Notes under the pieces: generated by a model
Told to the model about the DNA's origin: nothing
Databases searched by the model: none
Seen by the model: the letters and a program-made list of their open reading frames with translations, nothing else
UHGV virus genome: UHGV-0262016
Origin: a virus
Reading direction: 5' to 3' (one strand)
Length of the DNA stretch: 12,937 nt
In this document: piece after piece, positions 2,159-11,579 of the stretch
How the letters are laid out: every line of letters begins with the position of its first letter
Numbering within the stretch: position 1 is the stretch's first letter
Position numbers and translations under genes: made by a program

Positions 2159-2362
2159 TTACGGTGCTGGTTTAAGTCCTGCCGGGATTTCGTTATTGTC
2201 CATGTGAATAACTTTATCAACCGGATAACAGTTACCGGGAATTTTCTGTTCTGCTGCGGCAGCCATGCATTCTTTCATTGAACCGTAAATGTCAATAACC
2301 AGGTCAACAGGCTCGCCAGTATTAAGAAAAACAGTCAGAGTGAGGGCAATAGCAGTATTCAT
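2159..2362 (-). CDS. ydfD: Small protein with hydrophobic N-terminus (YdfD-like, putative lysis/membrane protein)
   Basis: ATG at 2362 overlaps the dicB stop (ATGA coupling); SD AAGGA 8 nt upstream. Product MNTAIALTLTVFLNTGEPVDLVIDIYGSMKECMAAAAEQKIPGNCYPVDKVIHMDNNEIPAGLKPAP (67 aa). The track's upstream ATG at 2416 has no usable SD. Symbol by position after dicB. Confidence 0.5.
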   Translation of the reverse strand: MNTAIALTLTVFLNTGEPVDLVIDIYGSMKECMAAAAEQKIPGNCYPVDKVIHMDNNEIPAGLKPAP

Positions 2363-2547
2363 TGCCAGTATCCTTTTTGCATCAGACGTAAACGGGCCAG
2401 CATTGAAACAATGCATATTTGATTTAATAACTCCCGTTCGTGTTTTCTCTTATTAATGGCATCTTCAGTAAATGCAGGGTTACTGATACTGACACCAATT
2501 TCAAAACAACCTTCAGACGTATTAACGTTTGGTAATAATGTTTCCAT
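2359..2547 (-). CDS. dicB: Cell division inhibitor DicB (62 aa)
   Basis: 62-aa ORF METLLPNVNTSEGCFEIGVSISNPAFTEDAINKRKHERELLNQICIVSMLARLRLMQKGYWQ closely matches my recollection of K-12 DicB (MKTLLPNVNTSEGCFEIGV...). SD GAGG 8 nt upstream of ATG at 2547. Lies directly downstream of a DicF-like RNA. Confidence 0.8.
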   Translation of the reverse strand: METLLPNVNTSEGCFEIGVSISNPAFTEDAINKRKHERELLNQICIVSMLARLRLMQKGYWQ

Positions 2548-2564
2548 TATCGCGTCCTCAACAA

Positions 2565-2724
2565 TGAATTTTGTGATGCGGTGCCTGGTGCCTCCAGGTG
2601 ACGTTAACCAGTTAACAATTAACGCCGGATACAGGGAAACCCATAAACACCCGATACGGGGGAACTAATCGCTTTTTAACTGTTCCGCGTGCGCTGAGCC
2701 GCATTCACCGCATCACAAAATTCA
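2565..2724. repeat. Perfect 19-bp inverted repeat (TGAATTTTGTGATGCGGTG at 2565-2583; reverse complement at 2706-2724) enclosing 122 bp between the DicF-like terminator and the dicB ribosome-binding site
   Basis: Both arms read directly and are exact reverse complements. The enclosed segment contains smaller hairpins (CCTGG/CCAGG 2584-2598) and tandem GTTAAC hexamers (2603-2616). Confidence 0.9.
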
Positions 2725-2728
2725 CTTT

Positions 2729-2783
2729 AAAAAGGGCGGACATCAGCCAGCAATGAAACTGATGCCGCCAAAGGTACAAATCA
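2729..2783 (-). ncRNA. dicF: DicF-like small RNA with intrinsic terminator
   Basis: Minus-strand RNA 5'-UUGAUUUGUACCUUUGGCGGCAUCAGUUUCAUUGCUGGCUGAUGUCCGCCCUUUUU-3'. An 11-bp GC-rich stem with one bulge (plus coordinates 2734-2768) is followed by U5. It resembles the K-12 DicF sequence as I recall it (shared UUUGGCGG.AUCAGUUU and CCGCCCUUUUUAAAGUGAAUUUUGUGAUG). Sits immediately upstream of dicB as in Qin. The 5' end is approximate. Confidence 0.6.
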
Positions 2784-3110
2784 ACATGGAGTGTTGTAGC
2801 GGGGTTGTCACTTAAGCGTATGGTCAACCTGACAACCCGGTGTCCTCAACGGGGAAGGAATAACCCCGCCATACTTACCGCCGCGCCATTTCGCGGAGTG
2901 CCACAACCGGAAGCGCACGGTCGACGAAAATTTAACGACAGGCTATCTATGAACCAGCTACCTCGCCGTGCGCTTTCGCGTTATGGTCTGACTTTTCAGG
3001 GAAATATCCTTTCAGTAAACTGTCAGTGCCGGATGCTCACCCGTGTCCGGCGCACGCACTCCACCTCACCCGTGGAGAACTCCTTAATCACCAACCCTCA
3101 GGAGGGTGAA

Positions 3111-3386
3111 ATGTCGACTGAAAATGATGAAATCATTAACTCCCTGATACGCCAGATTAATAATTTTGATAAAGCATTGCAGCATGCTGCGGCGCGTAGC
3201 GATATAACTCTTTTAGCAATTTCATTTCTTGCATCTGTTATGGATAAAAATGAAGTCGTACGACAGAGTCTTGTTGATTATATCGACTCGCTTCAACCCG
3301 GCACTTTCAATCATGAGAGCTTCAATCATGAGAAAGAGCATGTTAAGTCTGTAATTAATTCTCTTATTTTGAATCAAAAGAATTAA
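3111..3386 (+). CDS. Hypothetical 91-aa protein, AT-rich, opposite strand to the surrounding operon (sieB-equivalent slot)
   Basis: ATG at 3111 with SD GGAGG 5 nt upstream. Product MSTENDEIINSLIRQINNFDKALQHAAARSDITLLAISFLASVMDKNEVVRQSLVDYIDSLQPGTFNHESFNHEKEHVKSVINSLILNQKN. The long in-frame extension in track ORF 2805..3386 is Arg-rich and GC-rich, so judged non-coding. No family recognised. Confidence 0.55.
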   Translation: MSTENDEIINSLIRQINNFDKALQHAAARSDITLLAISFLASVMDKNEVVRQSLVDYIDSLQPGTFNHESFNHEKEHVKSVINSLILNQKN

Positions 3387-3684
3387 TGCTTTTTGTTGCA
3401 AAGTAATTTTCAAGGGGTTCTATTCGAATCCCTTTCTTTTTCATTAACAAGCCAAACCCCTTATCAATGATGTCCATTAGTTCCAGGAAGTATTTTTCAT
3501 GTAAATCCTGGTTATCAGAGAGCTGCTTCTCTTCGTACAGACCGATAAAGGCACGACGCACGTTACCGGATATAGTATCGATGGTTTCTTTTTCTACGGT
3601 ACTCAGGTCAAGAGTCGCCAGTTGGGAACGAACTATATTCGCTGCCATTTCCTGGAATTGCATTGGTAAATCTTTAAATTCCAT
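3364..3684 (-). CDS. Hypothetical 106-aa protein, AT-rich; 3' end overlaps the convergent plus-strand gene by 23 bp
   Basis: ATG at 3684 with SD GAGG 6 nt upstream, 22 bp downstream of the ydfC-like stop. Product MEFKDLPMQFQEMAANIVRSQLATLDLSTVEKETIDTISGNVRRAFIGLYEEKQ... No family recognised. Confidence 0.5.
   Translation of the reverse strand: MEFKDLPMQFQEMAANIVRSQLATLDLSTVEKETIDTISGNVRRAFIGLYEEKQLSDNQDLHEKYFLELMDIIDKGFGLLMKKKGIRIEPLENYFATKSINSFDSK
3412..3442 (+). terminator. Intrinsic terminator for the plus-strand 91-aa gene
   Basis: AAGGGGTTC / GAATCCCTT stem (9 bp including one G-U pair), 5-nt loop, then TCTTTTTC. Lies inside the 3' end of the convergent minus-strand ORF. Confidence 0.55.
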
Positions 3685-5159: not shown

Positions 5160-5483
5160 ATGAAAAAAGAGAACTATTCATTCAAACGGGCTTGTGCTGT
5201 TGTCGGTGGGCAATCAGCAATGGCTAGGCTTTTAGGTGTATCTCCTCCAAGCGTAAATCAATGGATCAAAGGTGTACGTCAGTTGCCTGCTGAGAGATGT
5301 CCTGCGATTGAACGAGCAACAAAAGGTGGTGTCCTGTGTGAAGAACTTCGTCCTGATGTTGATTGGTCATACTTACGACGCCCGTCATGTTATTCGCAGA
5401 ATATGTCGATGAAGCAACCAAATGACGAAAACGATCATACCCGAAGCATCAAGAGGCAAATGATTCATGAAAATCAAACATGA
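5160..5483 (+). CDS. ydaS: Cro/CII-like HTH protein (YdaS-like)
   Basis: ATG at 5160 with SD GGAG 8 nt upstream, about 28 nt after the PR -10. HTH-like GGQSAMARLLGVSPPSVNQWIKG. Divergent from the repressor. Confidence 0.6.
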   Translation: MKKENYSFKRACAVVGGQSAMARLLGVSPPSVNQWIKGVRQLPAERCPAIERATKGGVLCEELRPDVDWSYLRRPSCYSQNMSMKQPNDENDHTRSIKRQMIHENQT

Positions 5484-5892
5484 GCACATCCGCATGGCGA
5501 TGAATGCCTGGGCGCGTCCGGATGGTGAAAAAGTTCCGGTAGCCGAGATAACCAGGGTTTATTTCGAGCTGGGCATGACGTTTCCTGAGCTGTACGACGA
5601 CAGCCATCCGGAAGCCCTGGCCCGCAATACTCAGAAAATTTTCCGCTGGGTAGAGAAAGACACCCCTGATGCTGTTGAAAAAATTCAGGCGTTGTTACCA
5701 GCGATCGAAAAAGCAATGCCGCCTCTGCTGGTGGCCCGAATGCGCAGCCACAGTTCAGCCTTTTTTCGGGAACTGGTGGAGACGCGGGAACGACTGGTGA
5801 GAGACGCTGATGATTTTGTCGCAGTGGCGATCGCTGGTTTCAATCAGATGAATCGTGGTGGCCCGGCGGGAAATGCCGTGGTCGTTCATTAA
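5467..5892 (+). CDS. ydaT: YdaT-like protein (141 aa)
   Basis: ATG at 5467 overlaps the end of the previous gene; SD GAGG 10 nt upstream. Length and position as in Rac ydaT. Symbol by synteny. Confidence 0.55.
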   Translation: MKIKHEHIRMAMNAWARPDGEKVPVAEITRVYFELGMTFPELYDDSHPEALARNTQKIFRWVEKDTPDAVEKIQALLPAIEKAMPPLLVARMRSHSSAFFRELVETRERLVRDADDFVAVAIAGFNQMNRGGPAGNAVVVH

Positions 5893-11087: not shown

Positions 11088-11423
11088 GAAGGAAACAAAA
11101 CAGAAACAACAATTGCCGTTACCTGTTGTTACCATGGCAAGTAAACGCATCTCAGGCGAGCGCATTGCACCGTTCTGACGCAGATAAATTAGCCTGGATA
11201 GATGGTGCTGGCAATAAAAAATAGCGTTTTCTTATCGGTGTCGGTAAGATTGCTGCGGGTGCTTGAGGCTGTCTGCCTCGGGCATGCCACTGTAAGGCAG
11301 GCAGAGAAAAGCCCCAGTTAACATTACGCGTCCGGCAAGACGCTTAACATTAATCTGAGGCTCCCTATGCATGACAACATCAGGTTAGCCTCTTACGTGC
11401 CGAAAGGCAAGGAGAAGCAGGCT

Positions 11424-11579
11424 ATGAAGCAGCAAAAGGCGATGTTAATCGCCCTGATCGTCATCTGTTTAACCGTCATAGTGACGGCACTGGTAACGAG
11501 GAAAGACCTCTGCGAGGTACGAATCCGAACCGGCCAGACGGAGGTCGCTGTCTTCGTAGACTACGAATCTAGAGAGTAA
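11424..11579 (+). CDS. hokD: Hok/Gef-family type I toxin (51 aa), HokD/RelF-like
   Basis: Product MKQQKAMLIALIVICLTVIVTALVTRKDLCEVRIRTGQTEVAVFVDYESRE is a Hok-family signature, nearly identical to HokD/RelF as recalled. SD GGAG 9 nt upstream. An in-frame upstream ATG at 11367 (SD GAGG 6 nt upstream) gives a 70-aa mok-like extended frame. Confidence 0.8.
   Translation: MKQQKAMLIALIVICLTVIVTALVTRKDLCEVRIRTGQTEVAVFVDYESRE

Follow-up and report, generated by a model that had tools for sequence, protein, structure and literature searches.

Among the regulators of cell division and metabolism that prophages encode, DicF and DicB are textbook examples, and work is still under way on how the two come apart from a single transcript. 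In the viral DNA analyzed here (a stretch of 12,937 nt, referred to as the window), an inverted repeat lies between a DicF-like RNA and dicB, with 19-nt arms at positions 2565 to 2583 (TGAATTTTGTGATGCGGTG) and 2706 to 2724 that are 100% complementary and 122 nt apart. The question raised by this locus is what such a repeat does. A preliminary description proposed that it forms a 19-bp stem in the leftward transcript, which would serve as an RNase III processing site or as a structure controlling dicB translation or DicF 3' end formation.

The repeat and its neighbors

The minus strand of the window is the early-left operon of a Qin-type lambdoid prophage. Table 1 shows that the repeat is located directly after the U-tract of the DicF terminator and directly before the dicB Shine-Dalgarno sequence, which confirmed the order given in the preliminary description. 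dicB is the first gene downstream of the repeat and is followed by a ydfD-like gene. Of 5426 complete E. coli genomes, 4643 have the homologous locus, for the most part with 80 to 90% identity; its coverage is at least 80% in 3846 of the 5426 (about 70%).

The match of the DicF-like RNA to the Rfam model is below the gathering score of 48 bits, while the K-12 copy scores 76.7 bits. The RNA in the window keeps the terminator hairpin, and its 5' part, which contacts the targets in K-12, has diverged. In the Rac prophage, the copy upstream of kilR retains only a DicF-type terminator hairpin.

A further helix of RNase III length, with 22 bp and small irregularities, was observed upstream of DicF at 2904 to 2986 on the minus strand, where the window and K-12 share 96% identity. 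The DicF precursor of 190 nt has an RNase III-dependent 5' end (PMC10448788), and this end is expected at about 2919 to 2923, inside the 3' strand of this helix. With this helix upstream and the repeat downstream, DicF is flanked by two long helices.

Table 1. Features of the DicF-dicB region in the window, with the basis of each assignment
Feature	Position	Strand	Basis or remark
DicF-like small RNA, divergent variant	2734..2782	-	Rfam DicF (RF00039), 38.7 bits, E 1.2e-6
DicF terminator hairpin	2766-2739	-	Terminator scan
DicF U-tract, UUUUU	2733-2729	-	Terminator scan
P1 5' arm	2706..2726	-	AGUGAAUUUUGUGAUGCGGUG; fold, pair counts, helix comparison
STnc100/PasD-like core	2584..2705	-	Model R1, Rfam STnc100, helix covariation
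P2	2702-2687	-	Helix covariation, domain alignment
P3	2686-2684 with 2629-2627	-	Helix covariation
Pseudoknot	CAGUUAA 2682-2676 with UUAACUG 2615-2609	-	Complementarity analysis
Variable region	2675-2630	-	Domain alignment
P4	2625-2619 with 2607-2601	-	Helix covariation
P5	2598-2594 with 2588-2584	-	Domain alignment
P1 3' arm	2563..2583	-	CACCGCAUCACAAAAUUCAUU; fold, pair counts, helix comparison
dicB Shine-Dalgarno, GAGGA	2559-2555	-	3 nt downstream of the helix
dicB start codon, AUG	2547-2545	-	15 nt downstream of the helix
dicB, 62-aa cell division inhibitor	2359..2547	-	Pfam PF05358 DicB, 130.1 bits; RefSeq annotation of homologous loci

The repeat forms a 21-bp RNA helix

Direct comparison of the arms and shuffled sequences bore out the claim of two exact reverse-complement arms enclosing 122 bp. 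When the arm was searched for with up to 3 mismatches, these two sites were the only matches, and the mean number expected by chance was 0.01 (200 dinucleotide shuffles, none of which gave two matches).

We then folded the minus-strand transcript, as the preliminary description had suggested. The predicted structures contained the proposed 19-bp stem and lengthened it. In the minus-strand RNA, the pairs G2725·U2564 and A2726-U2563 are added at its outer end to give a helix of 21 bp, designated P1, in which 2726 to 2706 are paired with 2583 to 2563 in the dicB-sense RNA. P1 was present in both the minimum free energy (MFE) and the centroid structures of a 171-nt fold and a 261-nt fold, with fold z-scores of -7.5 and -5.8, respectively. 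Its length is that of an RNase III double-cleavage substrate (continuous double-stranded RNA of about 20 to 22 bp, or about two turns).

The 261-nt fold also contained a long-range pairing between the dicB start region and sequence 5' of DicF, which was set aside, as it appears not to be conserved in the K-12 sequence. In addition, the DicF U-tract followed by AA (UUUUUAA, 2727 to 2733) can pair via three G·U pairs with UUGAGGA (2555 to 2561), which covers the dicB Shine-Dalgarno sequence. This pairing would prolong P1 past a one-base bulge and is not part of the MFE fold.

P1 is maintained as an RNA helix

Homologues were gathered by motif scans of viral contigs and genomes, and 31 distinct copies that precede an open reading frame (ORF) were aligned (alignment A2). 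In the pair counts, which were made on a structure that we specified, compensatory double changes were found in 13 of the 21 P1 pairs. Among these 31 homologues, 95.4% and 99.3% of the cells in the two P1 segments were paired, and 97.8% of the cells in the whole structure were paired, compared with 31 to 40% when the partners were slid against each other. None of 500 shuffles reached the observed pairing values. The preliminary description had named a lack of conserved or compensated arms across homologues as evidence against a functional stem; the arms turned out to be conserved, and the description withstood this comparison.

Many P1 pairs are G·U (with pair counts such as UG:11, UG:8, GU:6 and GU:23), which are valid in the minus-strand RNA only; the opposite strand would have A·C at these places. 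In K-12, the arms are identical to those of the window except for two changes, both of which give G·U pairs. P1 helices with unrelated outer sequences in the window and K-12, in the Citrobacter prophage L134 (AGCAGGCUUUAAGGUGCGGUG) and in the viral contig L275 (AACAGACCUUGCAAUGCAGUG) are each exactly 21 bp long. In the kilR-type copies, P1 consists of 10 bp, one bulged A and another 10 bp, and compensatory changes were found within it in L051 and L045. These observations show that P1 is maintained by selection on pairing as an RNA helix of the dicB-sense strand.

A separate motif scan of genome contigs with GAATGCGGCTNAGCGC gave matches that were nearly all due to chance and in unrelated phyla; the only real matches were those in Citrobacter L134 and E. 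coli L145.

The enclosed 122 nt form an STnc100/PasD-like domain

STnc100 is a multicopy, expressed prophage RNA with 11 copies in strain EDL933, one of which has been confirmed by Northern blotting (PMC5331693, PMC12370729), and PasD is a relative that, according to RIL-seq data, is a trans-acting small RNA associated with Hfq (Zhu, Shabalina & Storz 2026 preprint). The Rfam STnc100 model (RF02076) matched the window at 2570 to 2722 on the minus strand with 34.3 bits (E 1.6e-5, model positions 21 to 154 of 206), below its gathering score of 47 bits, and the outer stem of the model fell on the repeat arms. The copies in L001, L002, L134, L245 and L336 were likewise below the gathering score, as were all of the dicB- and kilR-type copies. 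In an Rfam scan of 2300 to 3400 with an E-value threshold, DicF and STnc100 were the only matches apart from chance matches to snoRNA and miRNA models with E values of at least 0.09.

A covariance model, R1, was built with 120 positions from 23 stand-alone copies only. R1 matched the window over all 120 positions at 2571 to 2718 with 67.5 bits (E 3e-19), on the minus strand only, and also found the copies in Qin (K-12), Rac, Citrobacter, L249, L275, P7 and phage Tritos. There was no other R1 match in the window and none in HK022. The Rfam STnc100 model gave 87 to 161 bits for four of the five stand-alone copies that we checked, all four being among the 23 training sequences of R1, and the fifth (L010) was under the Rfam threshold. 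A put-type antiterminator RNA of HK022 was considered as another candidate and rejected, as the whole HK022 genome contained no motif match, Rfam match or R1 match.

The conserved 3' string TCACCNGGAGGCACCNGGCACC was found at more than 120 loci when viral contigs were scanned. Across the copies, the common architecture is P1, AAU, P2 (a hairpin with one bulge), a P3 of 3 bp, a pseudoknot strand, a variable insert, P4, P5 (consensus CCNGG AGGCA CCNGG) and the 3' strand of P1. P1 and P4 showed strong covariation among the stand-alone copies, and P3 occurs as GGA/UCC, GGC/GCC or GAC/GUC. The pseudoknot strand after P3 pairs with the loop of P4. The two pseudoknot strands were complementary over 5 to 10 nt in all 23 stand-alone representatives, although in L033 the strands are nested and not knotted. 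The mean complementarity was 7.5 nt with the strand's own partner, compared with 5.9 ± 0.25 nt with swapped partners, and none of 1000 permutations reached the observed value.

The structure and sequence shared with the family, as seen in R1 and in the conserved strings, support membership in the STnc100/PasD family. Thus, the conclusion that the enclosed 122 nt are a divergent STnc100/PasD subfamily missed by Rfam's curated model is supported, and the inverted repeat is the lengthened closing helix of this domain. The preliminary description had regarded the enclosed sequence as a loop with its own hairpin and tandem GTTAAC hexamers. The hexamers are real (2603 to 2608 and 2611 to 2616), and the hairpin stands, being P4; the sequence is not a mere loop, and P4 and the pseudoknot strand account for the hexamers.

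P1 length varies with genomic context

Stand-alone copies of the family have a P1 of 4 to 13 bp, most often 8 bp, with their own promoter (for example, TTGACA-17-TAAATT) just before P1 and a terminator after it. In the copies directly before a Shine-Dalgarno sequence and an ORF, P1 has about 16 to 21 bp. The ORFs behind a long P1 include DicB, the unrelated septation inhibitor Kil of Rac (phrog_294) and several small phage ORFs. Some contigs have an insertion within the 3' arm, namely, a gene for a Rha/Ash antirepressor, and kil or dicB follows. In L055 (about 770 to 1660), L250 and L122, this gene encodes about 280 amino acids and is followed by the remainder of the long-helix arm and then by kil or dicB.

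The genomic context was counted for 119 distinct copies, with a P1 length count that tolerates one irregularity and thereby lengthens stems. P1 had at least 14 bp in 41 of the 119 copies; in 40 of these the next feature is a Shine-Dalgarno sequence with an ORF, and in no case is it a terminator. Among the 78 copies with a shorter P1, a terminator came next in 55. Copies of the divergent subfamily that have a terminator (the L247 group, L265 and L088) have a P1 of about 7 to 10 bp. The link between a long P1 and a downstream ORF is suggestive; most long-P1 copies share ancestry, and therefore the counts do not represent independent events. We rejected the idea that a long P1 is found in every embedded copy, as it is contradicted by the copies in P7 and D6, which are embedded in the mRNA of the tRNA-terB-ban operon and have a P1 of only 9 bp. 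In phage P7 (L336, 2495 to 2622), as in D6 and L334, this copy of the divergent subfamily lies just upstream of terB in the C1-controlled tRNA-terB-ban operon of P1-like phages.

Among the stand-alone STnc100 copies, those in the Stx-phage-like contigs L017, L036, L057 and L077 are paired, 484 nt apart, beside tRNA genes. L011 and L066 have three copies of the family each.

P1 as a probable RNase III substrate

RNase III processing of the K-12 dicBF mRNA gives a 72-nt DicF that is 19 nt longer than the terminated 53-nt form, according to a 1990 study (Faubladier et al. 1990) as it is cited in PMC5069750 and PMC9438474. A list of classical RNase III substrates includes the intergenic regions of dicA-dicF-dicB (PMC2777011). 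In a 2023 study of dicBF processing (PMC10448788), the discussion is confined to the upstream site, where RNase III generates the 5' end of the 190-nt form. The enzyme accommodates about 22 bp of double-stranded RNA and typically cleaves both strands, so that 2-nt 3' overhangs remain; between the cuts there is usually at least one G-C pair (PMC6212723, Altuvia 2018).

Extension of the annotated 53-nt DicF end (…GCCGCCC) by 19 nt gives UUUUUAAAGUGAAUUUUGU, whose last nucleotide is the 12th of the 21-bp 5' arm (window position 2715); this placement comes from papers that cite the 1990 study and from counting onward from the 53-nt gene as annotated. As the RNase III-dependent end reported for K-12 falls inside the 5' arm, the proposal of an RNase III site and of a role in DicF 3' end formation is supported and is known in substance. 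A cut by RNase III immediately after DicF has been on record since 1990; the main idea of the preliminary description was thus right and is not new.

On the basis of these data and of the structure described above, we consider it probable that P1 is an RNase III substrate that separates DicF, the core RNA and the dicB mRNA in read-through transcripts. Some early-left operon transcripts would read through the DicF terminator, and the next 164 nt or so of the read-through RNA would fold into the multihelix, pseudoknotted STnc100/PasD-family domain, with its closing helix lengthened to 21 bp, or two turns of double-stranded RNA, and thus a substrate for RNase III. By homology with the 72-nt DicF of K-12, the cut in the 5' arm would be between 2715 and 2714. 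Its partner in the 3' arm, placed by the general rule of a 2-nt 3' overhang, would be between 2573 and 2572. The pairs between the predicted cuts, given this cut site, are G2716-C2573 and U2715-A2574.

Such cleavage would have three products. The 5' product would carry the 3' end of the long, 72-nt-type DicF isoform, for which the experimental support comes from K-12 only, through the papers that cite the 1990 study. The dicB-ydfD message would be detached, starting about 25 nt before the AUG, and dicB expression may be affected. The structured core of about 142 nt would be released as a presumably stable RNA. We found no RNA corresponding to the excised core in the literature searched, RIL-seq-style tables included.

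Alternative explanations for the conserved helix

P1 could instead be only a structural clamp that keeps the mRNA around it from interfering with the folding of the STnc100-like domain, with RNase III cleavage having no functional effect. A closing helix is indeed found in all family members, and the embedded P7 and D6 copies manage with 9 bp; a clamp does not need a fixed 21 bp in three unrelated sequences, and it does not explain why the 72-nt DicF of K-12, as cited from the 1990 study, ends inside the 5' arm in an RNase III-dependent manner. We therefore regard a clamp alone as unlikely. A role of the helix and domain in cis, by which they would hinder or assist ribosome loading on the toxic gene behind them (dicB or kilR), with or without RNase III, is compatible with the cleavage explanation. 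Seven long-P1 copies were examined; six of them (those of dicB, kilR and four others) have a start codon about 15 to 30 nt downstream of the 3' arm, and in the seventh, L055, the start of the Rha/Ash ORF is about 25 nt downstream. Two unrelated septation inhibitors occupy the same place, and the G·U pairing of the DicF U-tract and AA could cover the dicB Shine-Dalgarno sequence. However, the Shine-Dalgarno sequence and the AUG are outside the helix, the U-tract pairing is absent from the MFE fold, and the stand-alone relatives have no downstream ORF, from which it follows that the core has an ORF-independent role. We consider translational control of this kind, which may coexist with cleavage, improbable.

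The occurrence of the repeat upstream of different genes (dicB, kilR and others), with several copies per phage, would also be expected of a DNA-level element, such as the terminal inverted repeats of a miniature transposable element, a protein-binding site or a recombination site. But the pairing is kept by strand-specific G·U pairs and compensatory changes, which makes a reading as transposon ends or an operator untenable; the repeat has no target site duplication (the flanks are CTTTAA and CAACAA), and its interior is a conserved RNA fold that the covariance model matches on one strand only. A DNA element is thus very improbable. The same can be said even more firmly of a second terminator or attenuator, or of a frame for a small ORF (30 aa, 2704 to 2612), which we find scarcely credible. 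The stem is stable and the ATG in GGUGAAUGCGG opens a 30-codon frame, but the 3' arm is followed by UUGUUGAGGA and not by a U-tract, and the loop has 122 nt. A terminator scan found the DicF terminator only and none after the 3' arm of P1. Across the homologues the small frame has 7 to 49 codons, with shifted frames and unrelated C termini. The reading of P1 as an RNase III substrate accordingly remains the one that we prefer.

Relation to known systems

The dicBF locus of the K-12 Qin prophage is homologous to the window with about 87% identity and has the same order of DicF terminator, helix and dicB; the 72-nt DicF end reported for it, according to the later citations, falls in the 5' arm. 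The window differs from K-12 in its divergent DicF, which is below the Rfam threshold, and in the variable middle of the enclosed domain, which differs in both sequence and length. The helix and the enclosed domain are not described in the K-12 dicBF papers PMC5069750 and PMC9438474.

STnc100 and PasD have the same architecture as the window copy, from P1 and AAU through P2, P3 and the pseudoknot to P4 and P5, and share the near-invariant strings GGUGAAU on the 5' side and UCACCNGGAGGCACCNGGCACC on the 3' side; all are found in lambdoid prophages. Unlike the window copy, STnc100 and PasD stand alone as genes, each with a promoter and a terminator of its own, and their P1 has 4 to 13 bp; they are expressed in enterohemorrhagic E. 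coli (EHEC) and associated with Hfq. For the window copy, no promoter-like site was found on the minus strand within 2300 to 3400 and no terminator of its own. P2 is GCGGC.../...GCxCGC in the window, compared with CCCCC/GGGG in STnc100 and PasD, and P5 (CCUGG/CCAGG) and the 21-bp P1 also differ. The STnc100 and PasD literature cited above (PMC5331693, PMC12370729, and Zhu, Shabalina & Storz 2026) makes no mention of dicB, DicF or kilR.

In rRNA operons, the sequences on either side of a large structured RNA pair to make the processing helix. Functional units of a single transcript are likewise separated by a helix of about two turns in metY-nusA-infB, the 16S and 23S rRNA operon stems, the T7 early mRNA sites and the lambda N leader. 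In metY-nusA (named in PMC2777011), a small stable RNA with a partial terminator is followed by an RNase III site and then by ORFs. These RNase III processing helices have no sequence relation to the helix in the window, where a member of a prophage small-RNA family is enclosed and toxic cell division inhibitors are encoded downstream. By analogy, the element would resemble the metY-nusA site and the rRNA processing stems in the way it works, and by descent it is a divergent STnc100 relative.

Implications

Three aspects were not found in the literature searched: P1 as a covarying, length-conserved 21-bp structure; the spacers between DicF and dicB and between the DicF-like element and kilR as members of the STnc100/PasD fold; and the short P1 of stand-alone genes as opposed to the two-turn P1 directly before dicB, kilR and small ORFs. 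With them, the 72-nt DicF result of 1990 gains a defined structure, namely, a conserved RNA domain with a length-conserved 21-bp helix, and the STnc100/PasD family is widened by a divergent subfamily that is linked to the control of host-killing genes.

More tentatively, there may be two routes by which lambdoid prophages supply the STnc100/PasD core: a gene of its own, or a cassette of the early-left operon that is excised by RNase III via the 21-bp helix. We put this proposal forward as a possibility on which we lean toward doubt. If it is true, the cryptic prophages Qin and Rac of K-12 would each make an unrecognized structured RNA of about 140 nt together with DicF and DicB or KilR, and the same cut would set the 5' end, and hence the expression, of the toxic gene. 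The excised core RNA would be a third product of the operon, predicted in about 70% of the complete E. coli genomes. Without release of the core, what remains is a processing site that is well supported but already known.

Other small RNA matches

Two further RNA matches were observed. In L010, the Rfam model of the Hfq-binding RNA isrI matched 5465 to 5560 on the minus strand with 45.6 bits, against a gathering score of 45; a variant copy of the family, with the P2 CUUUC/GAAAG, is about 200 nt away. In the window, a full-length match to the Rfam sok antitoxin RNA was found at 11257 to 11429 on the plus strand with 109.6 bits. This points to a toxin-antitoxin locus of the hok/sok type in this prophage.
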